A program made the translations under genes and the position numbers. Of a DNA stretch of 32,000 nt, positions 1-32,000 are shown one piece after another; positions within the stretch are counted from its first letter, which is position 1; every line of letters begins with the position of its first letter. The stretch spans positions 718,308 to 750,307 of the forward strand of contig BAAFHK010000001.1 in NCBI GenBank assembly GCA_042852035.1, read 5' to 3'. The notes under the pieces were generated by a model. It ran no database searches and was not told where the DNA came from. It was given only the letters and a program-made list of their open reading frames with translations. This stretch comes from Candidatus Saccharimonadota bacterium. GTDB taxonomy: Bacteria > Patescibacteriota > Gracilibacteria > BD1-5 > UBA2023.

Positions 1-1
1 T

Positions 2-3000
2 TTTTACGAATGGGATTTTGGTGATGGAAGTGCTCCCGTAAATGGAAATCTTGATTCTATAGAGCACATATATAATAAAACTGGGGTTTACACCGTAACA
101 CTCCATGTAAAAAATATAAATTGAACTGAGGAGAATCTTATTTCACGTACCATTTATATCACTGATACTGATAGTCCATTCGCACTTATTGATATTAGTA
201 ATGGCTCAAATACGATTGCTGAAAACCCAAATGGGTGTGAAGCAAGCGGTACAGGTTGATCTTTTATGATTAACCGATCAGAAAATACTAAAATTGATGG
301 AGCTAAGTCAGTAAATGTCGATGGAAATACTTCATGACTGAGCTATACATGGAGATACATGTGAAGGGTAAAAACAGGATCGTCTCTTTATGAGAAATTT
401 ACAGAACTCTGATGCTTTCCGATTGAGCTCACTGTTCGAAGTGAGAAAAACGGATCATCTCATACTACAAAAAGATTTCTCGAAATCAGAAACATGCCAC
501 CGAAACTTACTTCAATTACTTCAAACGTAGATTCAACAAAGAAGGATTCACAAAAACTTATCGCAACGGTAAATGCTAATGGCGCAAAAGATGAAGATGG
601 AGTTATAACATCCTATGTATGGTACTATACCACTGAAAGCGATAGCGAGAAACAAAATGTTAAAATTACTCAGCTTCCAACAACTTCTTTCGTGCTCCCA
701 AATATCTCAGAAAAATACTACTTTTGAGTAATTCTCGAAGATAATGACGGGGCTCGTGTCGACAGCACTGATACTCTTGCTGAACAAATACCTCTTATTA
801 CTTCAAATGATGAGGCCAACATTAATATGCCCCTTATCAACTTAAGCGTTGATAAAACTCAAGCACTTACAGATGAAACAATAAACTTTTCCGTTTCAGC
901 AAAGAATATACTCGGAGCAGACATAACCGGAAAGAGTGAGTATTACTGGGATTTCGATGGTGATGGACACACCGATAAGAGAAGCTCTGAGGCTACCGCT
1001 TCATATGCATACAAAAATTCTGGAAGATATAATATGAAGGTAAAGGTTGTAAATAATGGTGTCTCAAACACAAAATACCAAGTAGTATATGTAAAAAATG
1101 AACTTAAAGCATCCATAAAATGATATCGCTATGGAAATGCTGTCTATTTTATCAACACAAGCAAGTGATCTTATGATAAAGTAGAATGGCAGTATGGAAC
1201 AAACGTATCCGAAAATCAGTACTCTTTTATGCTTCCTTGGCCAATGAGTACCTGAAGTGGTCAAGTTGGTACTTTTACAGTAAAAGCATGAACGAGTGAA
1301 GTATCGAGCACTGAAATATCTGAAAGCATAGTCGAAGAGACGCCAAAGCCTGAAGATGGTATTTCAATTCAAACATTTCCAATCATCCAAAGCGGAACAC
1401 TACTAGTACAAGGAGCTGGAGAAAAAATACTCCTGAGTGCCTTCGGAAATAATGCAAAGGAATATGCAATAGATATCGATACAAAAATTGACAGCGATCT
1501 CGATGGTATTCCTGACAATGATAAAGATAATAAAGATACACCGTCATTTACTGATGGAAGTGTATTTGCGATTACAAACCTCGAAAGCGTAAAAACGAGA
1601 AATCGAGAAGTAAAGATAAGCCTTATTTGAGATGATTGAGCTACAATTGCTGTTAAAAAAATACCAGTCGTATTTAGCTATATTCCTGGAAATAATACCG
1701 ACACAACTGATTTAACATCTACATGAATTGTAGAGTCATTTAGTGCTATCGATAAAGAAAATCTCGAACAGTTACAATCAAAAATTCGCTCTCTAGAGTC
1801 CGACGATAGGATTATATTTACTCAAAAATACAACACACTCATTGAAAATTGGAGTGACCTCTACGAACGAACTCAGAATCTTCTCGAAATCCAAAAGGAG
1901 GTCGATGAAAGTGCCACTCTAGATGATAAAACAAAGGAGGATCTTTCAAAACTTATTGATATAATTCTTGTAGGAGATGCGCAAGCAACAAATGAAATTA
2001 GTGTTGCAAGTAGAGTAATAGAATGAATGATTAAACTCGATAATCCTGATAGGGACTATATAATTGAACGACTGGAACAAATTAAAGCTCATCCAGCAAA
2101 TCTAGCAGAAAATAAAGCTCTCTGAAAAGAAATCCTACTCAAGGTAGAATGAGATTCAAATCTTTCAAATGCTGATAAACTTCTCTTAAAGAGTCAACTT
2201 CAGATTATAGTAAATGGATGACAAGAAAGCATTCCTGCTGATGAAGTTATAGTACCAGTCGCAGAAACTTGATGAAGTGGTTGATTTTTTGGATTCATCA
2301 AGGGGGCTCTGATAATTTTTTGAGTACTTATTGCTATAATACTTGGACTTGTTTTAATTGGATATATTTTCTACAGGCTTTCTCGAAAGAAAAATGCTGA
2401 TATGGGGTTTCAGGATTTTCTTATTGATTCCATCGCACATAATAAGACTACCTCTAAAGAAGCTATTCGAAAAGAAGCTGAAACCACTGTAAAAGCAGTT
2501 GAATTGAAACCAACTGATTCATCTAATATCATCAACCCAGTACATGATCCTCTACAAAATTCAGCTCCAACCTCCCCTCTAAATAATATTCCATCTCCTG
2601 TTCCTGTATTTAAAGAAGAACCTCTCAGTCAGAAAAATACAACTCCTGTGGCATCACCTTTTGATCCTCTTAATTCAGGGAGCAAAGTAGATCCCCTTGC
2701 AGAGATTCATGAAGAAAAAAAGACTGAATCATTTGAAAAAAATACACCTGAATCAGGTTCAGTAGACCTTAATACAAACCAAAAGAATCCAGAAGAAGTC
2801 ACGGAAAAATCAGCAGATGACCAAAGTGAAATCCCTGACTGGCTTAAGCCACTACCAAAAAATTCTTCAAAGAATCTAGACGATACTCAAATATCTAAGT
2901 CAGAAGAAAATAATGAACCAAAAACAGAAACAACTGTAACAACCGATAAGAGTTCTATCTTATGACCCCAAGTTGACTCAACAAAAACTGAGGAAACATC

Positions 3001-3418
3001 ATCCACCAAAGAAGAAAATCCCCCTTCACCATCAAGTAGTGATGCTACTCTAGGAAGGCCTGATAGCCCATTAGAGAATAGTGATGAAGAATTAGTACCT
3101 GATTGGCTTAAGCCCCTAGGAGACTCCTCTGAAATAGTCAATGGAGACAGTCCTTCCCTCCTTCCAATGAATGACGTTAATAGCCCTTCGGATGATTATT
3201 CGCCTTTAATCGAAGAAACTCCTGCTGCGAGTGCGGAACTTCCAGAATGGCTTAAGGCATCGGCTTCAAATATTTCTCCTGAAGAAAAGAAGGATAAAAA
3301 ACCTGTGGAAACAAAAAAGAAAAAAGGAATAAAAAAAGCCCCAACAGCTCAAAAAGATGAAGATATCCAGCCTGAAAAAAAGATGGATAATCAAGATATT
3401 CCAGATTGGTTAAAATAA
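2..3418 (+). CDS. Large cell-surface protein, 5' end cut by the window edge. It has PKD-like repeats, one TM helix and a long low-complexity C-terminal tail with 4x [IVL]P[DE]WLK.
   Basis: One frame is open from position 2 to TAA 3416-3418 with TGA as sense; I checked every codon and found no in-frame TAA/TAG. It joins track ORFs 494-727, 827-1123, 2402-2965 and 3167-3418. PKD signatures: WDFGDGSAP...YNKTGVYTVTLHV (2-115) and YYWDFDGDGHTD...YKNSGRYNMKVKV (~941-1060). Calcium-binding-like DSDLDGIPDNDKDNKD (~1490-1540). TM segment GFFGFIKGALIIFGVLIAIILGLVLIGYIFY (~2279-2378). Confidence 0.85.
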
Positions 3419-3450
3419 AAAATCCCCCTCATTCATGGGGGATTTTGTTT
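3419..3450 (+). terminator. Rho-independent terminator
   Basis: 10-bp stem aaaatccccc (3419-3428) / gggggatttt (3437-3446) with an 8-nt loop, followed by gttt. It starts right after the TAA stop. Confidence 0.7.
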
Positions 3451-3476
3451 GACGGGATAAATGAATATGATATACT
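3449..3476 (+). promoter_or_regulatory. Sigma70-like promoter candidate for the 3499 gene
   Basis: TTGACG (3449-3454), 16-nt spacer, TATACT (3471-3476), 22 nt upstream of the ATG. No Shine-Dalgarno sequence is visible. Confidence 0.45.
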
Positions 3477-3498
3477 CTATTGTATAAATACTCCATTT

Positions 3499-5820
3499 AT
3501 GAGTGAACAAAATAATCAAAATAATAAGAAGGAAGATTCATGACAAGCACCTTCTCTTCTTGCTAGTATAATAAAAGCATCTGCTGAAAGAGCTGGAACT
3601 ACCATTCAGTCAGATTCTCAGCCTAAGCCTGAATCAGATACTCAAAAATCAGCAACTCTTTCAAAGAAAATACCACGAGAACCGATTTCCATAGCAACAA
3701 TCATCAAGATGCTTTGATCCCTACTTGTGGTATCAATTATCTTTTTTTGAAGCTTTTTAGCTTATGTTGCATTTAATCCAGCAGAAGCAGTATTTTTCGT
3801 CAATACTTTCAATATTGATCCGAAAGATATTCAAAGTTTGCTTCTAAAGCTTATAAATGTGACATTCTGATTCATGATGGTAGTAGTCTCAATTGTTTGG
3901 ATTATTACCCTGTTTAGAGCATTTTGGGTACCAAAAGACCTCAAAAGAAAACGTCTTCTCTCATGGTTATTGGCTGGAATCGTATGAATCATACTTTTTT
4001 CGATACTTGCGTTCTGGTGATACCTATTCAAGGTAGTAAGCGCCAGTGAATATGATAATCCGGATGGAAGCATTCTTATATATGATCAAGCAGGTTATAC
4101 TATTGAAAAATATCGAGGAGAATCAAGACTTTATAATACTCAAAACCTTATTTGACCTATTGATATATTCTTTGATATTCGATCGAATGCAAATCTTATA
4201 GCCAGAAGAAATCTTTATACCGTACAATGATTTGAAATTGATTTTGACGGAGCAAAATGTAATAACTGAAAGTCAGTTATATCTTGATCAAATCCAGCAA
4301 ATGAACAAAGTCTTATATGTAAGTTTGATGAAATTAAACCCTATAACATTAAGGGTTCCTATACTGTGAAAAATCGTGAATGAGAAACAATTACCGTTCC
4401 GATTAATCTACCAAGCATTGAAATTCGTTGACTTATTAGCGTAAAACAACAAAAAAATACAAGAAATCAGAAAATCGTAACTATCGATGCAAGTTCACTC
4501 AGGAAACTTGGTACCCCCCAATGGATATATGAATGAAGTAATAAGGTAGTAACTGAATCTACAATTACTGAACCAATTACTCTCGAGCCTACTAGAATAT
4601 GTTTTAAGATATTCCTTCAGTCTGGATGTGACAGAATTTTTATTCTCAAAGATGATGATTCAAAAACCATAAAATGATCGATACATGCTGAACAAGATGC
4701 TTTAGACAGCCGACTATTTCAGTTTTCCCTTTCTTGAATCTCAATTAATCCAAATCAAATACTGAATATAGAATGGCTCCTTGATGAAAAGAGCGTTATG
4801 TGTCTTAATTCCGAAGAAAAATGTAATTTTACTTTCATTACTTACTGAAGAAAAAACATAAAAGCCACTATAACGATAGCGAGTGGTGAAAAATATACAT
4901 TTAGAACAGAAGTGGATGTTATAGAGCCCCTCAATCTCGTACGTCATATCAAAATATTTAACAAGGATGGCGTCTTTCTCAATGGTGAAGAGACTTATGA
5001 TTATAGTCTACGATCATTTATTCTTAAAAATTCGATTATCCCTCCAGAAAGTCTTACATTTGATGCACGGGATGTTGTTTCTGCAAATCCAGGATACATA
5101 CTCGATAATGTCCACTGGAAAATAAGTGATGGAAGTGAAGTGCGAGAGCTTCGTGGGCTTAAAGTAGATATTGAATTTAATCAACCTCTCAGGTACAATG
5201 TGGAAGCAAAGATTATCTTCAAAAAATGAGTTGTATGAGAAAGTGACATAGAAGAAACGGTTACTGAGTATGCTATCGTTGATGTTGAAAGAAAGAAACT
5301 TATGCCTCGCCTCTCAATATCAAAAACATCTGACTATGTTCCTTCACTCATCACTGTTGACGCCTCTCAGTCTGAGATTGAAGAATGAGAAATCAAAAAG
5401 TTCGTCTTCGATTTCTGAGAAGGAAAAGTTCCAGCAGAAGGTGACGCCATCCAGCAGTATCAATATACTACCTCAGGAGAAAAAGAAATAGTACTTACCA
5501 TAGTCTCAGATACATGAGAAAAATCCTCAGTAAAGAAAATAGTAGTACTCAAAGATCAAATTAAAACAATTGACTGGAAACCAAGTATGAGCGTATGAAA
5601 CCCTTGAGTAAGTGTCGATTTTGAAGCCGCCTGAACAAACGGGCAAATAGAAGATTATGTATGGAATTTTGGAGATAATTCACCCGTTGAACGATGATTC
5701 CAGGTTTCACACGCATTCTCTTATCCTTGAAAATACACAATTACACTTACTATTATCTACTCCGATGGGACACAAAAAACCATGAAAAAGACCTACGAAG
5801 TAGTGCCATGAAATTCTTAA
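3499..5820 (+). CDS. Membrane-anchored protein (773 aa) with N-terminal TM helices and C-terminal Ig/PKD-like repeats
   Basis: ATG 3499 to TAA 5818-5820. The frame was checked line by line and is interrupted only by TGA. TM segments: SLLVVSIIFFGSFLAYVAF, FGFMMVVVSIVWIITLF, LLAGIVGIILFSILAFWGYLF. C-terminal PKD signature: YVWNFGDNSPVERGFQVSHAFSYPGKYTITLTIIYSDG (~5656-5770). Confidence 0.8.
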
Positions 5821-5832: not shown

Positions 5833-5872
5833 AATAATAAGACCTCATAATTGCAGGTCTTATTATTTTTTT
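5833..5872. terminator. Bidirectional intrinsic terminator between convergent genes
   Basis: Perfect 13-bp stem aataataagacct (5833-5845) / aggtcttattatt (5855-5867) with a 9-nt loop. A T-run follows on the plus strand and an A-rich run precedes it. The 3' arm overlaps the pyrH double stop (TAA TAA). Confidence 0.75.
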
Positions 5873-6582
5873 GCGTGAACAAATGTTCCAATAATTTCCT
5901 CAGTACCAATCTGATCAATATCCTCTATCCTACAAACATAAATTGGCATTTCTTCATCATTTGCGAGCGCTATGGCTGACTTATCCATAACTCGAATATC
6001 TCTCGTAAGCACCTCATGCATATGAAGAGTTTCATGTCGTATGGCATCAGTATGCTTTTTAGGATCTTTATCATATATTCCATCCACCTTTGTAGCCTTA
6101 ACCACAACATCACAATCAAGCTCAAGTGCACGAAGAACAGCACAAGAATCAGTAGTAAAATATGGATTTCCTGTTCATCAAACACAGATAACAACTCTTC
6201 CCTTTTCAAGATGTCGAAGTCATCTTCGGCGAATAAATGTCTCAGCCACTCTATCAGTTGGAATAGCACTCATAACTCGAACATCAACTCATTCATGTTC
6301 TATAGCTTCACCGATTGCTAAGCCATTAATAATCGTCCCAAGCATTCACATATGATCTCATACTCACCTATCAAATCAGCCCTGCTCGAGAGTAATCCCT
6401 CTAAAAATATTGCCTCATCCGACAACTATAGCTATCTCAAGATTTCTTGATTGCACTAAAGATACAATTTTCTTTGCAAGAAAAGCGAGAAATTTTGGAT
6501 CAATTCCATATCACTGTTCTCATTGGAGGGCCTCTCATGATAGTTTTAAGAGAACACGTTTTGGTATATGATATTTGCGCAT
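5863..6582 (-). CDS. pyrH: UMP kinase (239 aa)
   Basis: ATG at 6580-6582 (minus strand) to TAA at 5863-5865. Motifs: KLSGEAL, VVGGGNIFRG, DHMGMLGTIING, GGTGNPYFTTDSCAVLRALE, KATKVDGIYDKDP. I count 12 in-frame TGA codons, most at glycines I recognise as conserved in PyrH. No in-frame TAA/TAG. Confidence 0.95.
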
Positions 6583-6620: not shown

Positions 6621-7220
6621 CTATAGCGGAATAAATCTGGAATAGAAAAATACAACAAGTGAAAATGTTATAACTATAATAAGGAGTGTTGCAAGTCAGA
6701 GAATATAAGAATTTCTTTTTCACATTTCTTTTTCAAGGTCATGAATTTTTCATGAGAGAAAATTAGCATCACTATCCGTTTTCGTTTTTGCGCTTTCAAG
6801 AAGAAATGTAGCCTTTTTATATTCAACAAGTGGAATAGAATTTTTAAGCTCTGTTTCAGATTTTCCAAGACGATATGCTAAGTCTTGGATAATTTCATCT
6901 TTTTTTATAATAGTCTCTTGGGCATCTCGATAAAGAGTCGAAAAATCAATTCCTTGGTCTTTCATATTTTTTGGGGCAAGTTGCTTCTCTCGGTGGATGA
7001 TCTCTGGCTCTGGTTTTCACTGACTATCAATCACAACAAATTCTTCGGTATCTTCACCAACTTCAGACAAACGAAGATTCTCCACATCTTCTTCATGCAG
7101 GTACATCTTTTTTCAGATACGTTTTGTGCGAATGCGTCATGCTTGGATATGTCTATCAACCGTTCTTGTTGAGACAGAAAGTCTTCGTGCCGCTTCATTT
7201 CTATCAATAGCAAATGCCAT
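6621..7220 (-). CDS. Tail-anchored DNA-binding protein (199 aa): N-terminal excisionase/MerR-type HTH plus a C-terminal TM helix
   Basis: ATG 7218-7220 to TAG 6621-6623. N-terminus: MAFAIDRNEAARRLSVSTRTVDRHIQAGRIRTKRIGKKMYLHEEDVENL. C-terminus: LGLATLLIIVITFSLVVFFY. AAGGA sits 6 nt upstream of the ATG. Confidence 0.7.
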
Positions 7221-7354: not shown

Positions 7355-9082
7355 TTACTGACATACTTCTCTCGGTGACTTACTCCAGAAACACTGATAA
7401 TTTCTTATTTTTCCCTCATATTCAAGAAGTTCACGGCTAATAATTTTTACAGATTTTGGATTTTTGATGAGTTCGAGTCGAGTACCTGCAAAGTAGAAGT
7501 GATTTTTATCTCTGGCAAAACTATACCGAAGAGGTATATATGTTTTGTAATCTGCTGATTCTATTTTCCATCAAGCATAGTATATATTACTTTTATCTTT
7601 CGAATGGAGATCTTTCATAAGAACAAAGCTATTTGGATCTGAATTGAGGATTGGACGCTCATCATAGTAGACACGATTTTTATCTCGCATATAGTGATAG
7701 GTTTCTATCCAATTATATCCTCCAGTACTCATACCAGTGAAGCTTCTAGGATCAGCTCATGGTATTTTCTTGTCCTGATAGTATACACTCTTCTCATCGA
7801 GTGCTCGCCATGCTTCAAGTGCTTTAAAAGTTTTAGCGTTGCAAGGAAATTGTGTTCATTCGAACCAACAAGAACTCAAATCTTTCCCATAAGAAGTTCC
7901 TGAGAAAGCGATAAATGTATGAATATTTGCACCTGTAAGAATAATATACTCATCTCACCACATATGGGTATATATATTTTTTGAATCGTTATAATAATCA
8001 ACTGATCATGTAAATGGAGTCATGTCTAAGGGTTTCGGTATAGGTGAAAAGTAAAGATTATAGTATCCATTTTTATCTGCGAATCCTGAGGGAGTTTTAT
8101 GAAAAGTTGTTCCATCAAATCCCGTAAGCTCATACCCCTCACAACCAATCTCATTTTTACAACCTACGAATAGCTTTCACTTACTTTTTACGACTCCATT
8201 CCCAATATATTCATAATTTCAGATATCTATTCCGGAAATAGCGCTTCCAGTTGGAGTAAAAATATGATTCTTGTCTCATGCGAGCTGAGCATCAGGAAAT
8301 AGTCGAAAAGTCTTCATATCTACACCCACAGATATATCTGGAGAATATATATTTTTAGAATCAAATACAAAAATTCATGATTCAGTGAGTGTACTAAAAT
8401 CATATGATGGATACGACTTCATTTCTTTTATATCAATATATGCAATATGTGGTTCATCCTGAATTCTTTGCTTTGATGGAAAAAATGCGTCATTATAAGC
8501 ACCGTTTTTATCATAGAGGAATCGTGAACCCATAGGACTCATAAAAACTCAAAAAGTCGGTATATCGATACCTTCAATTCTGAGTATCGTACCATCTGCA
8601 GATCCCATATAATAGAGAACTTTTCCATCAGTCATATAATCATATTGAAGGTATTTCATCTTTGAAATATCAAAACCTGTCGGGATTCTGAGTGCAACAT
8701 TCCCGTGAAAAATATAATCTTTATCTATTCAGAGAGTTATTCCACTTTGGACCCTTATAATATGAAAGGTTGAAAGATCAGGGAAAACTGTAATTTGCTC
8801 ACTCTTTTTATTGTCCCAATAACCAAAATATTGACCATTATATAATAATCTCTCTCAGAGCTTCCCAAGGCAACCATCCTCGAAGATCTTTATATTCCTC
8901 CAATCTTTCCAGTCACCAAGAATATATCATCAAACAGTATAAAATGTAATATCATCATGAGCATAGCATTCTGAAATTTTTTTGTATGTTTTCGGGTTTG
9001 CTGATTCTGGAAGGTATGATTCTCAAGCAAAAATTTCTCAAAAAAGAGAAGAGAAGAGAAATATAGTAAGTAAGATTCTCAT
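7355..9082 (-). CDS. Secreted DKNYY-repeat protein (575 aa)
   Basis: ATG 9080-9082 to TAA 7355-7357, with every codon checked. Signal peptide: MRILLTIFLFSSLFGEIFA. Repeats: DKNHIF, DKNGYYN, DSKNIYT, EKSVYYQDKKIPGADPRSFT, RDKNRVYYDERPILNSDPNSFV, DKSNIYYAGWKIESADYKTY, RDKNHFYFAG. Confidence 0.75.
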
Positions 9083-9095: not shown

Positions 9096-9737
9096 TTAAA
9101 AAGCTTCTAGAAAAATATCCATTATGGATAACATTTGATCAAACCAAGGGAATCGAGTGAAGTAAATAATTTCATTTTTCGAGAATCGAATATTTCTATT
9201 ATCTGGGAATGCTTCTTGTACTATAGGAAAAGCTTTTAAGAGATCATTACATGTAGGATATTTCTGTTGGAGTTTTTTGATCCAAACTGACTCATCTCCT
9301 TCTATAAATACATCAAGAAGAGATCTCGCCTCATAGCCACATCTTCCATTTTTTCTATCCCATCACATGACCGTTCCATATTTTTTCCCAAGTCGTATGA
9401 CGTTATCCTCACAAGAAAGTGTTGTAATGTGAAAAATGCTATAATTCGTCGGATATAATCCATCCTGATAATCAGAAAGCGCTACTATCAAATCACCTCC
9501 TCAAAATCACGGATAGGAAGTATTGGAGTAGCTTTGCCAGTACCAAGAAGTCGGATTTTCATATACATAATCTCGAAATGGAAAATCATAAGAGGAAAAT
9601 CCTATGTTTACTTTACCTGATTGTGTTTGATCTAAAGAGGAAATTCTGCCAACCATCACTTCTCAAGGAAAAGGCGGCATACAGGCAAAGACTGATAATG
9701 GAATAAGGAAAAGAGCTAAAAGAATGATTTTTTTCAT
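9096..9737 (-). CDS. Putative lipoprotein (213 aa), function unknown
   Basis: ATG 9735-9737 to TAA 9096-9098. N-terminus MKKIILLALFLIPLSVFAC is lipobox-like. It ends 13 nt upstream of the DKNYY gene, so the two are probably an operon. Confidence 0.6.
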
Positions 9738-9786
9738 AGAAAGAAGAACTTCAGGAAAGTATACGAAAAGACCCTAATACTCAAAT

Positions 9787-9819
9787 AAAAAAGACCCATC
9801 ATTTCCGATAAGTCTTTTT
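9787..9819 (-). terminator. Weak hairpin downstream of the tmRNA
   Basis: aaaaagac (9788-9795) / gtcttttt (9812-9819) with a 16-nt loop that holds a small atc/gat helix. The A and T tracts are part of the stem. Confidence 0.35.
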
Positions 9820-9886
9820 ATTGTTCCTTGTTTATCTCTTTTCGTATTTCGAAGAGGTAAAATTGGGACAGGTTTTGTTTCAAAAC

Positions 9887-10318: not shown

Positions 10319-10345
10319 GAGAAATTAATGTACTGAAGCTAGGCT

Positions 10346-10372
10346 ATTATAAGGAAAAATGGAAAGAATCAA
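10346..10372 (-). promoter_or_regulatory. Possible promoter for ssrA
   Basis: On the minus strand: TTGATT (10367-10372), 15-nt spacer, TATAAT (10346-10351), 27 nt upstream of the mature 5' end. This would leave a short leader for RNase P to remove. Confidence 0.3.
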
Positions 10373-10412
10373 AAAAGTTCAGTAATTATTCACGCTTTAT
10401 TATTAAAGAATC

Positions 10413-10445
10413 AAAAAACTCTCCGACATACCAATAATCGGAGAG
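10413..10445 (-). terminator. Rho-independent terminator of the 10463-10942 gene
   Basis: Stem ctctccga (10419-10426) / tcggagag (10438-10445) with an 11-nt loop. The A6 run at 10413-10418 gives a U6 tract after the stem on the minus strand. Confidence 0.7.
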
Positions 10446-10462
10446 AACACTGATGAGGAAAT

Positions 10463-10942: not shown

Positions 10943-11078
10943 ACCTTTACAAAAAGAGCAAAATAATTATAACATATTAAATTTAAAGAGTCAATATTTA
11001 TTTGATAAAATATAATATTGTCAAATTCAGTTTTGTGATTTCATTCGATTTTTCTCCATATTTTCCTATATTAAACGC

Positions 11079-20755: not shown

Positions 20756-22533
20756 ATACTTCAAAGTATACAAATCTTGATGTGCTCAAGCATGTATATA
20801 TCCACTGAAGCTCTCAGACTCGATCAAAATGGAAGATTCTTACGGTTCTTTTTCTTTTCTATATTGCTTGTACTGTCTCAGAGCCTTTTGTTTATCAACA
20901 AATTATTGATCTCATCATCAAGAATACTGGAGATTTTCGATCACTATTTTTCAATAAAATTCTCTATTTTATTGCTTTTTGGTGATTTATAGTTGTTGGA
21001 GGAATTCTTTCTTTTGCAGCATTTCAATACACTATTTGGAAATACCTTAATCTCGATAGCGGAAAACTCGCCCTCTACCTTGCTAGACAATTTCTCATGC
21101 TTCCTATAGATGTCCATGGTTCACTCTGAACCAATGAAATTCAGAAAACGTTTGATAGAACTGCAAATGGACAATGGGAAGTAGCAAATGCCTTATGAAA
21201 CCGCCTTTCATTTCCTGTGGTCATATTCATTTGTATGGTAGCCTTGTGATTCTATACAGATATCTACATGACTATTGTATGCCTTATACCTCTTCCATTT
21301 GGAATATGGTGGCTCGGAAAGACAGGGTCAAAGCTCTCGTGGGAACAAAGCGATGCCAATAACCTCTGGGACAATACACTTCATCGTATCAGTGATGCTC
21401 TCATAAATATAAGAATTATAAAACTTTTTGCACGAAAAGATTACGAGCTTAAAATCATAAAAAACGTTTACGATAAAGCTATTCATAAGCAGCTTATTGT
21501 AAACAATGGATGGGCCGTTACAGAATCAGCATCAGAATGATTCCAACTTATCGTAAAAATTTTTGTATTTTCAATAGGAGCATACCAGGCATGACTTGGT
21601 CGGATAAGCATAGGTGAGCTCATCCTCTTCCTTGTAATTATATGACGTATATATGGACCAATAATGAATATACTCTACGTCTATAGAGATCTCATAAAAA
21701 ACATGGCCAATTACAAGAAATGACTTGCCCTGCTTGATATTTATTCAGAAAAGGATCTTGGGAATGAAGTCTTCAAATGAATCAAGAAATCCCTTCTTTT
21801 CAAGGATATTACATTCTCTTATCCTAATACTTCTCGTAAGGTTCTGAAATGAATTCATATAGAAATAAAAAAGTGAGAAAAGGTGGCACTTATTGGTCAT
21901 ACTGGAAGTGGAAAATCTACGATAGTACAACTTCTTATGAGATTTTATAACAGTACTCATGGGAGTATATTCGTTGATGGAAATAATATCGAAGATTTTA
22001 CTCTTGAAAGTTATCGTCAGAAATTCGCATCAGTATTCCAAGACACAACTCTCTTTAATGAATCAATTCGTCATAATCTCGAATATGTAAGGAGTGATAT
22101 TACGGAAAAAGAATTAAAAAAAGCAGCCAAGGAAGCAAATATCCTCGAATTTATAGAGTCACTTCCAGAAAAATGGGATACGGAAGTTTGAGAAAGAGGA
22201 CTTAAGCTCTCAGGAGGAGAAAAGCAACGTATCGCTATAGCTCGAGCTATTTTAGCGGATCCTGAGATACTTATCCTCGATGAAGCAACAAGTGCTCTCG
22301 ATACAGAAACTGAGAGACTCATTCAAAGTTCTCTTGAGCAACTTATGAAATGACGCACTTCTATCATTATCGCCCATAGACTTTCAACCATTCAGTATGT
22401 TGACCGAATTTATATGCTCGAAAAGGGTGAAGTAATCGCAAACGGGAACCATAACGAACTCATGAAATCAAGCGAAAAATATCGCCACCTTATCGAACTC
22501 CAACATAATGGATTCATCGAAGATGAAAAATAG
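20740..22533 (+). CDS. ABC exporter, fused permease and ATPase, MsbA-like (597 aa)
   Basis: ATG 20740 overlaps the murG 3' end by 16 nt; the gene ends at TAG 22531-22533, with every codon checked. Walker A: GHTGSGKST. Signature: [14 protein letters not shown]. Walker B: [13 protein letters not shown]-loop: IIAHRL. The N-terminal half contains multiple TM helices. Confidence 0.9.
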
Positions 22534-22565: not shown

Positions 22566-22991
22566 ATGCAATACAATATACCACCTTGCTTCTATCGTCT
22601 TTCAGTAAAGGCTCTCATACATAATTCAGATTGAAAATTCCTCCTCATAAAAGAAGAGAATGGACTCTGGGAACTCCCAGGTTGAGGATTAGACTATGGT
22701 GAAGAACTCCAAGAATGTCTCAGACGAGAGATTTATGAAGAAATGTGACTTGAGACGGTAAAGATAGCAAGTGAGCCTTGTTATTTTTATACAAGCACTA
22801 ATCTTTCAAAATCAAAACATATCGTAAATGCTCTTTATGAAACAAGTGTGAAAAACTTAGAATTTACCCCCTCAGAAGAATGTGTCGAGATTGGTTTTTT
22901 TACGCTTCAAGAGGCAAGCACTCTTGATACATATCCAAATATTAAGGAATTTCTCAAACACTATAACCCCTCTCGTCATGTCCACGTCTAA
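22566..22991 (+). CDS. Nudix hydrolase (141 aa)
   Basis: ATG 22566 to TAA 22989-22991. Nudix box: GGGLDYGEELQECLRREIYEEMGL. Confidence 0.85.
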
Positions 22992-23307
22992 AGATTCACT
23001 TACATATTTTTTGGAATGTCTCGAATGAACTCCAGACCTTCGAGCAAAGGCAATGTTCTGAGAATACGGTATTTATTCTGGTGACAAGATGTTTGCGCTT
23101 GCCTGTGATAATACCCTCTTCCTTAAGACTTTTCCAGAAACAATTCCCTATTTTTCAGACACAATGACCAAAGCCTACCCAGGAAGTAAAAATACGGCAC
23201 CAGCAAACCCTGAATGGCTCGAAAGTGAAAAAGAAAAGCTTATAGATATCGTAAAAATAACTTTACTATTAACCCCTCCGCCAAAACCAAAAAAGAAAAA
23301 ATGTTAA
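22978..23307 (+). CDS. TfoX N-terminal domain protein (109 aa)
   Basis: ATG 22978 overlaps the Nudix gene by 14 nt; the gene ends at TAA 23305-23307. The core AMFGEYGIYSGDKMFALACDNTLFLKTFPET matches the TfoX_N pattern as I recall it. Lys/Pro-rich C-terminus. Confidence 0.7.
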
Positions 23308-24620
23308 CCCTTATACCTCTCTTTTGCTTTTGCAGCACTCTCTTTCTGGCTCACAATTGGCGGATAGTATACCTCCTTTAGATCGAGTGAATGAATTCTT
23401 TTTGGGTCAATATTCTCAAGCTCAGGAAGGTATTTTTTTATAAATTTTGCCTCTGGATCAAATTTCTCTGATTGAAGAAGAGGGTTAAAGATACGAACTG
23501 GCTTCGGGTCAGCACCAACCGAGGCGCTCCACTGCCAATTACCGATATTTACTGCCTCATCATAGTCGATGAGATATTTTTTAAACCAACGTTCACCAAT
23601 CCTCCAATCAATACCGAGATTCTTCGTAAGAAATGATGCAACCACCATACGGAGTCGGTTATGCATCCAGTTTGTCTCATAGAGTTGTTTAATGGCAGCA
23701 TCAATGAGTGGATATCCCGTCCTAGCATTTTCGAACATTTTCCATTCATAGTCTTGAGTATCTTGAGACCAAGCTATACTTCTTCGTCTCTCCTGAAATT
23801 CTAGAGAATATGTAAAGGGGAAATAATAGGCAATATGATACCAAAATTCTCGCCAAATAATTTCCGATAGCAAGGAAGGATTATCTCATACCTTATGATA
23901 TATTTCTCTTACTGAAAAAATACCAAATCGTATATAAGGAGAAAGTCTTGTAGATCCGTCAATGGATGGAAAGTTTCGTAACTCATCATAACGAGAAAAA
24001 TCCCTTTCTAATCGTTCTCGACCAAATTTTACAGTCCAAAATGGATGATATGGCGCCTGGATAATCTCTCGAACTTTTTTTCTTTCTTGAGGAATAAACC
24101 ATTTTACTTTTGATCCATCTATCTCTTTAATTATAAGCCTCTCAGGATGAGCAAGAAGGAATTTCTTCCAGAGCATAGAAAATGGAGTAAATACCTTCCT
24201 CTGATCTACCTCATCTGGCTCCACCATGAGAAAGTCCTGAAATGAGTGAAATGCAATTGATCGACTATCACACAGAGCAATAAGTGATTCATCACGTGCT
24301 TTTCATTTCGGAGAGTAAGATCTATTTATAAAGAGAGCATTTATATCATGCTCCTTGAGAATTTCTTCTACAACTCTTTTTGGATCTCATTGATAAACCG
24401 TAATAGCTCATCCATACAATCTCAGTCATTCATCTATATATTCAAGTGCTTCTTTTATGAAACCAAATCGAACATCATTTTCACCAAAATCTTGAATGGC
24501 ACGAGAATCATGAATAAAAATAGGAAATATTTCCTCGGAATTTTTAATTGCCTCTATAAGTCACGTATTATCATGCAATCTGAGATCCTGTCGGAAAATA
24601 AAAAGACTTCGTTTATACAT
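23304..24620 (-). CDS. phrB: Deoxyribodipyrimidine (CPD) photolyase, class I type (438 aa)
   Basis: ATG 24618-24620 to TAA 23304-23306. It joins track ORFs 23304-23873 and 23886-24227 with the upstream part. Motifs: LFIFRQDLRLHDNTGL, TRLSPYIRFGIFSVREIY, WREFWYHI, TGYPLIDAAIKQLYETNWMHNRLRMVVASFL, NIGNWQWSASVGADPKP. Confidence 0.92.
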
Positions 24621-24661: not shown

Positions 24662-24970
24662 CTATCTTCTTAAGCTATATCTGAAAAAATGAAGAAGTTT
24701 ATGAATACGGAAAGTAAAAAATAATCGAATAGAATATCTTTTTGTTTCCTTAATACCAAAAATAAGTATTCATGCCATGCTCATAAATACTAGACCAATA
24801 GGAATCGGACTAAGGAATCCAATAATTCACATGAGAAAAAATAAAAATGAAAGGAAGATTCTCAAAGTCGAAGGAAGAATCATTATCTTATCATAAATTG
24901 GATGAATTCTTAGAGATTCAAAAAAATCATTCAATTGAATCCGATATATTGCTTTTGCTTTAGCATTCAT
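24662..24970 (-). CDS. Small hypothetical membrane protein (102 aa)
   Basis: ATG 24968-24970 to TAG 24662-24664. Two hydrophobic segments: LRIFLSFLFFLMGIIGFLSPIPIGLVFMSMAGILIFG. Confidence 0.5.
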
Positions 24971-25064: not shown

Positions 25065-25541
25065 TTAATTAAGTAGCGTGGCCTTTACAATTTTTACCTC
25101 AGATTTTGGCCTATCCTGAGAGTCTGTAGGAGTAGCTTCTATAAGATCAACCACCTCTATACCGGATATAACATGACCAAATATGGTATGTTTTCTATCC
25201 AAAAAAGAGGCATCATGTGTGGTTACAATAAAAAACTGCGAACCATTCGTGTTTCGACCAGCATTAGCCATAGAAATAACTCATCGTTTATGAGTAAGGT
25301 CGAATGTAAATTCATCTTGGAAGGATTTTCCCCAAATACTTTCCCCCCCTCTTCCTGTTCAGGTTGGATCTCCTCATTGTATCATAAAATCTCGGATGAC
25401 CCGGTGAAAGATAATCCCATCGTAGTAGCCATTTTTTACATGGGTAGTAAAATTTTCTACTGCTTTTGGTGCATATTGTGGAAAGAGCTCGAGAGTAATG
25501 TCTCCGAGATTCGTAGAAAGAAGAATTTGAGGTTGATTCAT
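25065..25541 (-). CDS. ppiB: Cyclophilin-type peptidyl-prolyl cis-trans isomerase (158 aa)
   Basis: ATG 25539-25541 to TAA 25065-25067. The motif [27 protein letters not shown] has TGA at 25374-25376 and 25359-25361. Also [15 protein letters not shown] and HTIFGHV. Confidence 0.92.
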
Positions 25542-25579
25542 AAAATAGAAATTGGTGAATGAATTTTAATAAAATCTTT

Positions 25580-25879
25580 CTACATTCCAGGAATATTGAG
25601 CCCCATCTGACCCATAACTCCTCTCATTCTCTCAGCAGCAATTTCTTGAGCTTTCTTCATCCCTTTATTTACCGCATCTGTGATTGCCTTCTCAAGCTTT
25701 GTTTGATCTTTTAGAATAGACGCATCCTCTATAACCGTATTTACAACCTTGAGTTGTCCATCGATAGTAACGACTACACCATCAACTTCAGCTTCAATAT
25801 GAGTATTACTGAGTTCTTCTTGAATCTTTTGAGCTTGTTGTTGTAATTTCATGAGCTCTTGTGCTTGTTTGAAGTCCAT
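25580..25879 (-). CDS. ybaB: YbaB/EbfC-family nucleoid-associated protein (99 aa)
   Basis: This track ORF is intact and has no TGA. Motifs: MKLQQQAQKIQEEL, EAEVDGVVVTIDGQLKVVNTVI, AITDAVNKGMKKAQE. TAG stop. Confidence 0.85.
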   Translation of the reverse strand: MDFKQAQELMKLQQQAQKIQEELSNTHIEAEVDGVVVTIDGQLKVVNTVIEDASILKDQTKLEKAITDAVNKGMKKAQEIAAERMRGVMGQMGLNIPGM

Positions 25880-25962
25880 ATAAAAAAGTGAATAAGAATA
25901 AATTGTTTTATAGATACGAAAACGAAGGGATTATAAAAAAAAAGGTGATTTTTACAAGCATT

Positions 25963-25990
25963 TTGACGTACGATGATTTCAGAGTACACT
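25963..25990 (+). promoter_or_regulatory. Sigma70-like promoter abutting the start codon (leaderless type)
   Basis: TTGACG (25963-25968), 16-nt spacer, TACACT (25985-25990), then 7 nt to ATG 25998. Confidence 0.45.
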
Positions 25991-25997
25991 TAGGGTG

Positions 25998-26573
25998 ATG
26001 ACCTCAGAAGCCGTATTGTTACTTCTTTTCTTTCTTCTATTTCTCGCTTGGGGAATAATTTTTGGTCTCTATCATATGAGTCGAGATCTTGCTCAATGAA
26101 TCCGGTGATATGGAGTACCTTATGTTCCCACTCCAAATATAAAAATATCTCTTCTCATAGAAAATTTGAATCTAAAAAAATGAGATCTCTTTATTGATAT
26201 AGGATGTTGAGATGGGATAATACTCGAAGCTGTAAAAAAACAATTTCCGGAAGCGAGGGTTATTGGGTATGAAAAATCATACCGACCCTATCTTGATGCA
26301 ATAAAAAAGAGAGAAAAGAACTGACTCGATTACGAGATTCGAAATGAAGACTTTTTTCTAGCAGGTATCAAAGAAGCGAATGTGCTTTATAGCTATATGA
26401 TTTCTTATATGATGGAGAAAATATGGTCAAAAATTAACTCTGATTGCAGAGATGGAACAATCCTCATCTCAAGCTCTTTTCCCATCAGTTCAAAATTACC
26501 AAAAACGACCCTCAATGTATGATGAAATAAGAACCTATTTATCTACGAAGTTGAGAAAAAACGAGTGCCATAA
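25998..26573 (+). CDS. Membrane-anchored class I SAM-dependent methyltransferase (191 aa)
   Basis: ATG 25998 (GTG 25995 is also possible) to TAA 26571-26573. N-terminal TM: AVLLLLFFLLFLAWGIIFGLY. SAM-binding motif I: LFIDIGCGDGIILE. Confidence 0.7.
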
Positions 26574-27249
26574 GAATACCTATTGCGTAAAAAAGAAGGA
26601 AATTTATCTCTATAGTATAGGGCTGTCCCCAGAATATACCGATACTAGCCCAAAGAAAAACAATCGATACAATATGAGCACGAAATTTGAGCTGAAAAAT
26701 AAGAGTTGCTAAAAATGCAACACTCAAAATGATGATTCACCAAATTATAGAATTCTCAGAGTTTACAATTCCAAGATATTTTAGCCAAACAGCAGTATTG
26801 GCAAAAGTTGCTATATGAATCCATGCCATAGTTAGTTCGATAGAACTACGAACTATCCAATCTTCATTTTTCGTATGAAAAAAACTATACCAAAGTGCTC
26901 CGAGAATCAAAAGCATAACCAAAAGAGCAGTACCCATCCACTCAAATCACCAAGGCAAAAGCCAAATCCCACTCAAAATCTGGGCTCATAAAAATACAAA
27001 AATTCATGTACCGATTTTTTGATGTTTTTTTCTATAGAAAGCAAGATAACATCAGGCAACAATCCAAGAAAGATAGATTAAGGACCATATTGAGAAAGTA
27101 AAGCCTGCTGGCGTTATGGGAGTTTGATACTTCGCAGAAATATCAGCCTGAGTGAGTCACCCTATAAGAAAAGGAGAACCAGGAATACTTAAGAGAGAAG
27201 TCATACTAATAACTCCAATCGAGATGATAAGTGGCAGATATCTACGCAT
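26539..27249 (-). CDS. Polytopic membrane protein, tentatively TspO/MBR-related (236 aa)
   Basis: ATG 27247-27249 to TAA 26539-26541, with every codon checked. It joins track ORFs 26539-26727 and 26737-26937. It has about 6 hydrophobic segments, is Trp-rich, and carries the motif ITPAGFTFSIWSLIYLSW. Confidence 0.55.
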
Positions 27250-28006
27250 AGGAAGATGGGTAAGAAATTATAAGCTCCATGAAACCATGATCAGAAAATA
27301 CTGGCTCAAGATTCACCCTGAAAGAATCAACAGAAAAATTCGTTCCAACAAATGCATAATCCGCAAAAGGAAGTGATGCATCGTCGTAAGCACTGGTACG
27401 TGTCGTTTGTATGTCAAATTGACGAATAAGGTTGCTGTACTTTTTCTCAAGCATCTTTACTGATTTCGTCTCGGGATTCAGATTGAAATCTCCAATCAAG
27501 ATAGTACTTGACTCCTTTCATTTTCTCAATTTCCTCAATATTTTCGACTGTAAAATACGTTCTTCAGTATCGTTCTTTTTCGATTTTGGCTGCCATGCAC
27601 CATGAATATTCATAATAGTAGCCCCCTCAACTCTTACTGATAAAACTTTTGTTGAATTATTCCATCTTCACTTATCAAGGAAGGGGGTTTCTGAAAATCA
27701 AAAGAGATATTTTTCAAATCAGAGCTTTTGTTTAAGAGTTTTTCTTACGAATGTAACTATACCAAAACTCTCGCGCACATATTCAGCATAATAGGGAGTA
27801 AAATCAATAAGCACTCTTTCGAGTTTCTCGTAAAAATGAGAATCATATCAATCCTCGAAGCAACGAATATCTTTGGCATCACGAGGAACCTCCTGAAAAC
27901 AAAATATATCAAAATTCGAAGCAATAGACTCTAAATATGGAAGAAAAGTATGACTATATTTTCCATATTCAGTATTGAGAGAAAAAATTCGAAGCTTTTG
28001 ATCCAT
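27242..28006 (-). CDS. Endonuclease/exonuclease/phosphatase (EEP) family protein (254 aa)
   Basis: ATG 28004-28006 to TAG 27242-27244. Motifs: IFSLNTEYG, FCFQEV, IMNIHGAW, ILIGDFNLNPET, VFSDHGF. It overlaps the next gene's start by 8 nt. Confidence 0.8.
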
Positions 28007-28008
28007 AG

Positions 28009-28593
28009 TTATTTTTTACGAAGAATTTGGAGAACTATAAGTAAGAAATTTATCAATATAACTGAACCAGAAAATATCATCGTTGTCCAAGAGTATATTG
28101 AAAGTGCCCCGAGGGACAAGCCATGTTTTATGTTCATAAGGAGGTAGTACCCACTTGGCTCGCTTTGAGGCTTATGCCACACTTTTTTTAGGGTTGGAAT
28201 ATACCCGATAGCATCAGCAAGCATAGCAAAAAGTGATCCATAAAATGGATTCTTTGTCCCAAACCACAAGACTATAGCTCCAAAAGAGAGAAGAAGAGAA
28301 ATCCAATCTAGTAGAGAAAGTTGATTTTTTTTCCCATATTTGAAGGCAAGAAGGAATACAAAGATGCATACAACAAAAGTAACTCCATTTTGTGCACTTC
28401 CCAACCCTCATCAACCTGCAACTTGAGCAGAAAAAGCAATTCCCGTGGTGAGAGCCCAAATACCCCAGCTAAAAATATGGGGCTCAGTTTTTCACTGAAG
28501 GGTGCTTCTTATATATCCAAAATAGGCATAAAGAGCTATCAAAACAGAAGTAAAACTCAGTACTTCTCTCCAATATAAAAAAATACTCTGCAT
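28009..28593 (-). CDS. Hypothetical polytopic membrane protein (194 aa)
   Basis: ATG 28591-28593 to TAA 28009-28011, with every codon checked. It has 5-6 hydrophobic segments, for example FSWGIWALTTGIAFSAQVAGGGG and GVTFVVCIFVFLLAF. It ends 2 nt before the EEP start. Confidence 0.6.
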
Positions 28594-28614: not shown

Positions 28615-29304
28615 TTATGAGGCATCAATATATTCTTCCTTTCCAATGAGTATATTCCAAGCACTGATTATTCTCTGTTTGAAAGATTTTGACTCATTCT
28701 TTTTGGCATTATCTTTAGCACTAAACTGTGAAGTACCATCCCCAACAAAAAGAGATTCATACCATTCTTTATCTTTCTTCTTCCATTTAAGAAATGAATT
28801 TTCACTTTCTTGAAGGGTTGAATTTTTTAGTCTCTCATCGGCCGTTACTTCCCAACCCAAAAACGCTGGTTTTGTGAACTTATGCTCAATATCACTCATC
28901 TCAACGTCTGCGGTAATTACTCAGAGATTATCTCATTGGTATTCATCGATTTCATAAGTAAGCCCATCAGTATGAGTATAGCTCCTACGAATCTTTATGA
29001 TTTCCCCATGTCCTATCATCATATAGAGAGCATTTCGAGGAAGGACTGGCCATTCATACTCATCTCGAACTGCTGGATCTGTTTTTTTATTTTTAGTCTT
29101 ATTTACCTTAAAACAGAAGAAACTTGACATCTCTCCTCCATTATCGAGATCTTCTATCATCCGAATACGGAGCTTATAGCCATCTTCTTTATGAATAGTG
29201 GATTGCACCAAGCGTTTTCACTTTTGATTGTCTCTGATCTTTATCCAATCTGGATGATATGGATTTACGACGAACTTTCGTTCGATTTCTATATTTTTTG
29301 GCAT
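28615..29304 (-). CDS. CYTH-domain (triphosphate tunnel metalloenzyme) protein with a C-terminal extension (229 aa)
   Basis: ATG 29302-29304 to TAA 28615-28617. It fuses track ORFs 28933-29211 and 28615-28899 through one TGA. N-terminus: EIERKFVV (ExExK). Other motifs: YKLRIRMIED, IIKIRRSY, YEIDEYQ-G-DNLGVITADVEM, KPAFLGWEVTADERLKN. Confidence 0.8.
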
Positions 29305-29370: not shown

Positions 29371-29377
29371 TGAAAAA

Positions 29378-30022
29378 ATGCATTCTTATTGATATTCTCA
29401 TCAGAGGTTTCTTCCGAATGATCCACTCCATGCATTGGAGGTAATTTGAGAAACATGAATCCCTGTAGTAATTTCCAAAAAAAGACGAATAAGGAAAGAT
29501 TATTCAGGTCGTGTCTACGAAATTGTTTGTACTCATGATTGAACATGGGAGGCTTCTTATTCCAAAAGAGACTTCCAATACCCCATTCATACAAAGGTTG
29601 AATACAATAGAGAAGTTCATCCAACGAATCTCCCTCTATGATTTCCGAGTGTAGTTGCATGAACTGCAATCCTTGATGAATTTACCAATGAAGAGTGGCA
29701 GAGAAAAATTCAACTTATTGCAAGAATCTATGATGGAGAAAATCTCGGAGTTATACTCATTTGAATACGTGCATTACTTGAGTGATATGATGATATCGAG
29801 GATGAAGCTTTTTTTGAGGTCGATCACAGGAAACTTATCCCGAAAACAGTAAACGCGAGAGTAGTTCAATTATTCCATTGATCCTCCCCAATACCCGATG
29901 GATCACCTTATCATGATAATAAGCTTGCAAAAAATCCTGCGAATGGATGGTGAAAAACTTACGCTTCCCAGGAGATTCAAAATACAGCAAAACTAATCCT
30001 TGCTAGAAATGCTTGTCGGTAG
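29378..30022 (+). CDS. Orphan hypothetical protein (214 aa); I recognise no family
   Basis: ATG 29378 to TAG 30020-30022: 215 codons open under table 25, checked line by line, including 10 TGA codons. The composition looks like a globular protein, for example EFTNEEWQRKIQLIARIYDGENLGVILIGIRALLEGYDDIEDEAFFEVDHRKLIPKTV. A consensus-like promoter lies directly upstream. It competes with minus-strand track ORF 29364-29669. Confidence 0.6.
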
Positions 30023-30679
30023 AATTTTCCAGTTTGCTGGTACTGCATAAACTTTATTTGCACGTACTTGCCAAAACTCTGCTGTCTCCAGGCAATAAGC
30101 TGTCAGATGCCCTCAGAAAGAGCATCATGTATCAAGACCAATAGTATTTTTCGTTACTCGAAGTCCTGCCGTAGCCCAATGACCGTAGATAACAAGTTTT
30201 TCTCAAGTATAACTTTCATACCAAGGTTTTCACTCTATTACACGAATCATTGTTGCAATTTCTGCTGGGGTATCTTTCCCATATTTCGGATGGAACCCAC
30301 CATGAACGAGGATAAAATCTTCTCTTTCGATATATATAGGAAATGAAAGGATCCAATCAGTATATCACATGTCGTTGAGTTTGGTACGTAGTTCATATGT
30401 TTGCTCATATCTATTTTCTATCCACTTGAGGTGATTATTTTCTTCGTAGGAGATGTATTCTTTCTTGAGACTAAAAAATTCATGATTCCCCATTACAGAA
30501 AAAGTATTTGGTCGATTACGGACAAATTCTACAACTTCGAGTGATTTTGGTCATTTATTGATAAGATCTCAGACGAAATAGAGAGTATCATCATCATGAA
30601 TTTCTACTTTTTCGAGCAATGCCATGAGTTCATCATAGCATCCATGGACATCTCCAATAAAAAGAGTTCTTGTTGACAT
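29993..30679 (-). CDS. Calcineurin-like metallophosphoesterase, ApaH/PrpE-like (228 aa)
   Basis: ATG 30677-30679 to TAG 29993-29995, with every codon checked. Motifs: [33 protein letters not shown]. Confidence 0.85.
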
Positions 30680-30682
30680 AGA

Positions 30683-31441
30683 TTATTTCTTAGGAAACCA
30701 CGGGATAAAAACACTTGTCTTTCTTTTATAATCTTCCCATCATGGTCGTCCAGCATATCGAATCTCTTGAAGCGGAACTCCTGAAACAAAAAGAAGAAGG
30801 ATTGTTATAGCTCACCACCCAATAATTGAAAATAAAGAATAGTGGATACCTATAAATGAAATACCCAACCAAAATGTACTTTCTCCGAAATAATTTGGGT
30901 GTCGGGAATATTTATAGAGTCAAGCCATGAAAATCTCACCTGGTTTTTTAATTTTTATAAACTCCCTAAGTTGATAATCAGCGATTAATTCAAAAATAAA
31001 TCCAAATAACGCAAGACTTAATCCAATAATAAGCCACATATCAATTTTGGGTGATTCAGAAGAGAAATTTACGAAAAAAATCGGGAGAGCAACAATACCC
31101 ATAAGGATCATCTGAAGTATATAAACTTGAAAGAATGATCTCAAGTAAAAGTAAGCTCAACTTCCCCATTCTTCCCTCCATTTGGCGTAACGTAAATCTT
31201 CCCTTTTTTCTTTCCATTTTCTTAGACCAATATGAAATGAAAGACGAAGTCACCAGATAATAATCAAAGTAGTAATTATGAATTGGGGAACTTCTTTTTT
31301 TCAAAGAATAAAGCTTCCAATGGCAAGTATGATAAATCATACTCACCAAAATATATCGACTATAGAATTATCCTTTATTTTAACGGATATAAGAAAAAGA
31401 AGGAGATAGCTTATGAATAAACAAATGAATAAAGTTATCAT
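30683..31441 (-). CDS. DUF1295 / steroid-5-alpha-reductase-like membrane protein (252 aa)
   Basis: ATG 31439-31441 to TAA 30683-30685, with every codon checked. Motifs: NSIVDIFWGVGF, DLRYAKWREEWG, LYKYSRHPNYFGE. It ends 3 nt before the phosphoesterase start. Confidence 0.75.
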
Positions 31442-31854
31442 ACGAGGAAATATTTATGTATCGCATACATAACACATGCCACCATACCACAGAGAAATGT
31501 TCCCCAAAAAATATCGACCACCGTAAAAAGAAAAGAATATCCCCGAATAAAAGTGAGGTTCGTAAGATCATACATAGCATATGAGAGAAATCCCATAATA
31601 GAACCATAAATAACTGCACTCATATAGGACGTTGCATAACCTGATCGAATCACAAAAACATAAACAAGAAGAACTATAACAAACCAAGCAGTAAGTCAAG
31701 CAAGAAGATTAATCTTAATTGAGCCAGCTTCTACAACAACAAGATTCCCAAATTCTCGAATAATAAATCCCTTTGTCACATATCAAAGCCAAACAAAATC
31801 ACCAATAATAATTGTAATATAGCCGATAATGATAGTAAGGATAGTTTGAATCAT
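31435..31854 (-). CDS. DUF2177-like small membrane protein (139 aa)
   Basis: ATG 31852-31854 to TAA 31435-31437; the penultimate codon is TGA. Motif: YAMYDLTNLTFIRGYSFLFTVVDIFWGTFLCG. It overlaps the DUF1295 start by 7 nt. Confidence 0.65.
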
Positions 31855-31876
31855 AATAATTATATAAGTAAGAAAT

Positions 31877-32000
31877 CTAAAACCCGCTTTGTAACTCTAA
31901 CATCTTATGGTAAATGCCTCATTTAGCAATGAGTTCTTCGTGGGTTCAACGTTCATGGATGGTTCATCATTCTATCACAATGATGTCATCAGCCTTCTTT
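31877..32000 (-). CDS. C-terminal end of an ABC transporter ATPase; the gene continues beyond the window
   Basis: The minus frame reads KKADDIIVIE-G-G-TIHER-G-THEELIAK-G-GIYHKMLELQSGF and ends at TAG 31877-31879. This is a typical MsbA-type C-terminus. Confidence 0.7.

Follow-up and report, generated by a model that had tools for sequence, protein, structure and literature searches.

In-frame TGA codons point to a UGA-glycine code in a 32-kb chromosomal stretch of an uncultured Gracilibacteria member

Nearly all the genes in a 32,000-base stretch of contig BAAFHK010000001.1 (hereafter the window; GC 35.7%) are interrupted by TGA, which raises the question of whether this triplet is a stop that breaks them or a sense codon, and if so for which amino acid. 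A preliminary description of the same DNA had proposed glycine throughout, as in translation table 25, and the analysis presented here leads to the same answer. The window very probably derives from the chromosome of an uncultured Gracilibacteria member that uses table 25, in which UGA would stand for Gly while UAA and UAG terminate. Judged from the sequence record, UGA must be read through by ribosomes in essentially every gene, and that record requires Gly at those positions. The window can be annotated only once the code is recognised, since under table 11 its essential genes look shattered.

Coding sequences (CDS) were defined as frames bounded by TAA or TAG and starting at the first ATG, the starts thus being inferred, which yielded 32 CDS with 9,967 codons. 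Within them TGA occurs 267 times in frame, TAA and TAG not once, while in the two off-frames TAA, TAG and TGA are found 219, 186 and 131 times and 280, 99 and 504 times, respectively. At least one TGA is present in 31 of the 32 CDS, ybaB being the sole exception, and the frames close with TAA (22) or TAG (10) and never with TGA, their C termini agreeing with those of homologues, in the case of ArgRS to the final residue. Hence, the claim that frames are broken by TGA but never by TAA or TAG holds, as does the claim that all end in TAA or TAG, whereas the 33 CDS first counted are 32 CDS and one transfer-messenger RNA (tmRNA). With TAA and TAG as sole stops, these 33 features occupy 95% of the window, which bears out the early impression of almost no non-coding DNA.

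Under table 11 the picture is very different: no stop-to-stop frame anywhere in the window exceeds 213 amino acids, frames of at least 150 amino acids cover 11% of it, against 94% when TGA is read as sense, and the CDS are split into about 299 pieces, well above the figure of about 150 given at first. This agrees with the earlier expectation that gene calling with table 11 would fail. Two regions that seemed non-coding are accounted for: 9738-11078 is filled by the tmRNA and a small minus-strand open reading frame (ORF) at 10463-10942, an Rfam E-value search of this interval returning the tmRNA and nothing further, and 25542-25997 contains ybaB. Two plus-strand ORFs, at 10343-10966 and 25077-25883, were dropped as antisense or compositionally odd, each overlapping a better-supported gene.

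A Pfam search in which TGA was masked as X, to avoid presupposing any residue, gave one full-length match each, running across the TGA codons, for PyrH, CysRS, ArgRS, MurG, the ABC exporter, cyclophilin, photolyase, DprA and two Nudix proteins, which is the outcome that the preliminary description had anticipated for profile searches. Concerning the residues involved, alignments to PDB sequences from several species place TGA on invariant glycines of PyrH (KLS-G-E, VVG-G-GN and G-TGNP), CysRS (G-RPGWHIEC and DIHxG-G), ArgRS (G-DW-G), DprA (VV-G-SR), MurG (G-G-TGGH and G-SQ-G) and cyclophilin (Q-G-GDPT-G-TG). The second Nudix gene has two of its three TGA on the two glycines of the Nudix box GX5EX7REUXEEXGU, a motif read directly off the sequence. 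All the positions singled out earlier are in-frame TGA codons (11718 and 11796 in cysS, 14228 and 14237 in argS, 19814-19819 in murG, 22189 in the ABC exporter and, on the minus strand, 6415 in pyrH and 25374 and 25359 in the cyclophilin gene), and the totals of 11 TGA for cysS and 12 for pyrH were right.

In order to let standard-code proteins name the residue, eight genes were aligned, with TGA as X, to their E. coli K-12 orthologues (loci L002-L008), and each codon was tallied against the E. coli residue. The 76 aligned TGA face Gly 34 times, Ala 9, Leu 6, Val 4 and Trp once; against a column background of 7.4% Gly and 1.3% Trp, the Gly excess has a binomial P of 8e-19. As controls, GGN codons face Gly in 75 of 127 cases, with Ala next, and TGG faces Trp in 19 of 41. 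Summed over the 76 TGA columns, BLOSUM62 gives Gly +62.5 bits, followed by Ala with +1. Amino acid composition, counted on a first set of 30 genes with 9,739 codons, shows 422 GGN and 262 TGA, i.e. 7.0% Gly if both are included and 4.3% if TGA is excluded; 38% of Gly codons would then be TGA.

The codons of relatives, read from their DNA, provide information that depends on no annotation. When GTDB species genomes were scanned with an ArgRS alignment, 80 related loci were obtained, every one a Gracilibacteria or Patescibacteria metagenome-assembled genome (MAG), with a best ArgRS identity of 71%, and synteny with these loci extends over much of the window. At the 12 ArgRS columns where the window has TGA, the relatives show GGN 380 times, TGA 162, TGG 22 and other codons 317; conversely, of the 591 TGA in their own ArgRS, 377 meet TGA (162) or GGN (215) in the window. 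The window's ArgRS TGG columns contain no TGA in any of the 80 loci. The count was repeated on 21 other syntenic genes, comprising 302 gene-locus pairs: the window's TGA columns hold GGN in 40.7%, TGA in 18.7% and TGG in 0.1% of the relatives' codons, its GGN columns 59.1%, 11.2% and 0.0%, and its TGG columns 0.5%, 0.4% and 81.6%, respectively. Because of these codons at the window's columns, TGA is to be taken as synonymous with GGN, but not with TGG. Together with the E. coli alignment, this interchange upholds the glycine assignment first proposed.

The use of TGA is uneven within the clade, ArgRS containing none in frame in four relatives (L016, L018, L021 and L066) and up to 26 elsewhere. 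Coverage by table-11 ORFs is 0.11 in the window and ranges from 0.00 to 0.95 among 67 related loci, the window's TGA use lying near the clade's high end.

The first alternative concerns the lineage. The preliminary description had left Gracilibacteria and Absconditabacteria (SR1) both open, and UGA to Gly is common to SR1 (PMC8629427), where CGA and CGG are in addition reassigned to Trp. That the window is an SR1 genome of this kind is very unlikely. Of the 9,739 codons 97 are CGA (about 100 per 10,000), whereas in SR1 its frequency stays below 37 per 10,000 (PMC8629427); here CGA faces Arg in 14 of 30 positions aligned to E. coli. CGG, a small sample of 14 codons of which 4 are aligned, faces Arg in 3, and Trp is not among the top aligned classes of either codon. 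The nearest ArgRS relatives and the label in the NCBI record also speak for Gracilibacteria. Translated with table 25, 13775-15496 gives exactly the protein GAB0174815.1, and the Gly translations of PyrH and cyclophilin are exact entries from the same contig, GAB0174807.1 and GAB0174826.1; all three carry the name Candidatus Altimarinota bacterium, Candidatus Altimarinota (taxid 363464) being a phylum of the Patescibacteria group whose taxid is listed for Gracilibacteria (PMC8629427). A source within Gracilibacteria (BD1-5/GN02, now Candidatus Altimarinota) is thus supported by ArgRS relatives and NCBI names, so that the Gracilibacteria half of the earlier attribution stands while the Absconditabacteria code is set aside, as CGA and CGG align to Arg.

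A second alternative is that TGA encodes Trp (table 4), as it does in Mycoplasmatales and several insect endosymbionts. In its favour, public protein collections hold Trp translations of the clade's genes: the Logan PyrH P0126 has W at all 12 TGA sites, and among database ArgRS proteins (alignment A1, P0001-P0120) column 411 reads W in 18 and G in 13, and column 213 W in 15 and G in 11. In the DNA of the 80 relatives, however, these two columns carry TGA, GGN or other codons and never TGG; such W entries are table-4 mistranslations, gene-caller choices and not evidence, and database users should be aware that they persist. One ArgRS TGA does align to a Trp in E. coli, yet the relatives have GGN 29 times, TGA 6 and Ala 23 in that column. 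Alignment of TGA mainly to Trp, the result named at the outset as one that would speak against glycine, did not occur, as 1 of 76 equals the 1.3% background while the window's TGG reaches 19 of 41; decoding TGA as W scores -81.5 bits under BLOSUM62, and TGG and TGA stay apart in the relatives (0.1% and 0.4% in the columns given above). Finally, TGG alone gives 1.5% Trp, which table 4 would raise to 4.2% of residues. We consider the Trp assignment to have hardly any chance of being correct.

No better placed is the view that TGA is a true stop, the window consisting of pseudogenes, an error-filled assembly, or genes expressed by low-level read-through. The roughly 299 gene pieces obtained under table 11 would fit it, but the frames are interrupted by TGA alone, TAA and TAG being absent from 9,967 codons though common in the off-frames; the affected sites lie on conserved glycines and are common to the 80 relatives or are GGN there; the genes hit include essential ones (two aminoacyl-tRNA synthetases, pyrH and murG); and no CDS among the 32 ends in TGA.

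It is exceedingly improbable that the stretch belongs to a recoded phage or other mobile element and not to a cellular chromosome. Candidate phyla radiation bacteria do have phages (PMC10746230), but the content is cellular housekeeping (two aminoacyl-tRNA synthetases, pyrH, murG, dprA and tmRNA), the genes are syntenic across many Gracilibacteria MAG chromosomes, the source contig measures 750,307 bp, and megablast against 50,697 phage records gave no match. Least credible of all is selenocysteine (SeC), or another special residue, inserted through local recoding signals: ARAGORN names any tRNA with a UCA anticodon tRNA-SeC, but the 267 sites spread across 31 of 32 genes, the 76 aligned TGA include none on Cys, GGN and TGA replace one another at these sites in relatives, and the tRNA(UCA) family described below pairs Gly acceptor elements with a body of normal length and lacks the long-armed SeC shape.

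Three observations weigh against glycine decoding under table 25. About one in two aligned TGA meets a residue other than Gly in E. coli: 45% of TGA face Gly compared with 59% of the window's GGN codons, the non-Gly share being only marginally above that of GGN (Fisher P = 0.06). Accordingly, the statement that TGA falls on conserved glycines is borne out for the textbook glycines of the PDB alignments but does not extend to every TGA. The window contains no tRNA gene, and a UCA anticodon is present in none of the 25 tRNAs, a small sample, that ARAGORN detected on the 80 related loci. It should also be noted that neither an RF1 nor an RF2 (prfB) gene lies within the 32 kb.

By analogy with the clade, decoding of UGA as Gly would involve a dedicated tRNA-Gly(UCA), probably charged by glycyl-tRNA synthetase through G1:C72, C2:G71, G3:C70 and U73, while RF2, the competitor at UGA, would have been lost and RF1 left to read UAA and UAG. 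Candidates for such a tRNA were sought at the level of the clade by a pattern scan of metagenomes for a tRNA with the acceptor stem GCGG...CCGCU and the anticodon loop UUCAA, so that the acceptor elements are imposed by the pattern. It matched 120 stretches, and 80 loci were listed; tRNA(UCA) genes are present on 36 of these 80, most of them belonging to one highly conserved 79-nt family, GCGGGGGTAACATAAAAGAGTGAGTGTACTAAGGCTTCAACCCTTGGGTGTGCCAGTTCAAACCTGGTCCCCCGCTCCA, located mostly on low-GC contigs with collapsed table-11 ORF cover.

This family (L090-L168, e.g. L097 8932-9010) varies hardly at all among contigs with a GC of 18-44%, has an unusual D-loop, AAAAGAGTGA, without GG, and carries an encoded CCA end. 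Three metagenome loci, L151 1-74, L129 76-146 and L148 172-245, on contigs with GC of 0.62, 0.53 and 0.32, respectively, show canonical tRNA-Gly-like bodies with anticodon UCA and normal table-11 ORF cover; these could be opal suppressors in standard-code hosts or their phages.

The tmRNA (9887-10318, minus strand; Rfam RF00023, 56.2 bits) lies upstream of cysS, an arrangement that is syntenic in six relatives, and its tag ORF (10226-10155, minus strand) encodes AKSPLQALAASFKKAVTPSAVLA followed by the stop TAA. Rfam places the relatives' copies at L009 987-1429, L010 5433-5889, L013 6560-7001, L014 3751-4200, L015 4927-5349 and L016 6260-6690; all seven score 54-87 bits with Rfam, ARAGORN detects none of them, and the tags of all seven end in GCY TAA. 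The T-arm of the window's tmRNA reads GCGGG-GGCGGTG-CCCGC, and with GGCGGUG as its loop it lacks the usual UUCRA of the T-loop. In L015 the arm is GCGAG-TGCAATT-CTCGC, a compensatory change of the stem, and G3:U70 is retained. It is improbable, though worth stating, that the high UGA use or this T-loop reflects a lineage-specific change in the ribosome, in tRNA(UCA) or in tmRNA-SmpB of an RF2-less cell; if true, a known system would gain a new detail.

The remaining content of the window is described from left to right, the brackets giving coordinates, strand, number of in-frame TGA and stop codon. It opens with a PKD-domain surface protein whose 5' end is cut by the window and which has a transmembrane (TM) helix (2-3418, plus; 22, TAA); after this helix comes a long low-complexity cytoplasmic tail in which [IVL]P[DE]WLK occurs four times, ending with a copy at the extreme C terminus. 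A membrane protein with C-terminal PKD domains follows (3499-5820, plus; 27, TAA). On the minus strand are then found pyrH, for UMP kinase (5863-6582; 12, of which 9 are on Gly in E. coli PyrH, TAA), an HTH_17 protein with a C-terminal TM segment (6621-7220; 6, TAG), a secreted protein of the DKNYY family (7355-9082; 16, TAA), a hypothetical protein with a signal peptide (9096-9737; 4, TAA) and, beyond the tmRNA, a conserved hypothetical protein for which homologues occur in 26 related loci (10463-10942; 5, TAG).

The plus strand continues with cysS, for cysteine--tRNA ligase (11079-12587; 11, TAA), where the second motif reads DIHMG-G, and argS, for arginine--tRNA ligase (13775-15496; 12, TAG). 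Between them sit two tandem paralogues, both hypothetical (12628-13110, plus; 10, TAG, and 13256-13732, plus; 3, TAA), whose products have the common motif HEFYxVIMxG..VGCFRIF...LELGSVVS; they gave no Pfam match and have homologues in just 6 related loci. Next come, all on the plus strand, a surface protein with SLH, PKD and TSP3 domains (15574-17433; 24, TAA), a hypothetical protein (17435-18103; 5, TAA), dprA, for DNA processing protein A (18096-19196; 15, TAA), the first Nudix hydrolase (19257-19733; 3, TAA), murG (19757-20755; 10 including VG-G-G-TGGH, TAG), an ABC exporter of the MsbA type (20740-22533; 14 including V-G-ERG, TAG), the second Nudix hydrolase (22566-22991; 3, TAA) and a TfoX_N domain protein (22978-23307; 2, TAA).

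Four minus-strand genes follow, namely those for deoxyribodipyrimidine photolyase (23304-24620; 6, TAA), a small membrane protein (24662-24970; 2, TAG), a cyclophilin peptidyl-prolyl isomerase (25065-25541; 3, TAA) and the YbaB/EbfC nucleoid-associated protein (25580-25879; 0, TAG), and then an S-adenosylmethionine-dependent methyltransferase on the plus strand (25998-26573; 7, TAA). The minus strand further holds a TspO-like membrane protein, from a weak Pfam match (26539-27249; 6, TAA), a protein of the endonuclease/exonuclease/phosphatase (EEP) family (27242-28006; 5, TAG), a membrane protein (28009-28593; 3, TAA) and a CYTH-domain protein, again from a weak Pfam match (28615-29304; 3, TAA). 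A hypothetical protein with an uncertain start (29378-30022, plus; 10, TAG) precedes the last three minus-strand genes, for a calcineurin-like metallophosphoesterase (29993-30679; 7, TAG) and the DUF1295 (30683-31441; 8, TAA) and DUF2177 (31435-31854; 3, TAA) membrane proteins.

The preliminary description was also correct in stating that the code itself is not new: UGA as Gly is already known for the clade, and table 25 is already applied in this genome's deposited annotation. The reassignment in Gracilibacteria was reportedly predicted in 2013. For a BD1-5 bacterium it was confirmed by proteomics in 2014 (PMC4032931), the peptides unique to each database numbering 97 for UGA-Gly, 3 for UGA-Trp and 0 for UGA-stop; the 3 UGA-Trp peptides hint at low-level Trp misreading at UGA. 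With Codetta (2021), UGA was inferred to stand for Gly in 13 of the 15 Gracilibacteria species, both of the others having RF2 and lacking tRNA(UCA) (PMC8629427), and in BD1-5 genomes prfB was detected in none while prfA is present (PMC6851277). The value of the present result is hence practical, consisting in the correct code for annotation, and beyond that nothing new is learned.

Compared with known systems, the window resembles table 25, the SR1/Gracilibacteria code, in its UGA on conserved Gly, in UAA and UAG as sole stops, in its Gracilibacteria lineage, in its low GC and in its deposited proteins, which are table-25 translations; it differs in nothing of kind, its TGA use merely standing at the clade's high end. 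With table 4 (Mycoplasmatales, Entomoplasmatales and some endosymbionts; UGA = Trp) it has in common the captured codon and low GC, and RF2 loss is the proposed route to that code as well (PMC6851277), but the window's TGA columns hold Gly and GGN, not Trp and TGG. The Absconditabacteria (SR1) code (Shulgina and Eddy 2021, PMC8629427) is that of a sister lineage in which UGA has been reassigned in the same way; CGA and CGG, rare there, also stand for Trp (PMC8629427), whereas the window uses both freely and aligns them to Arg, and therefore does not follow this further-modified code.

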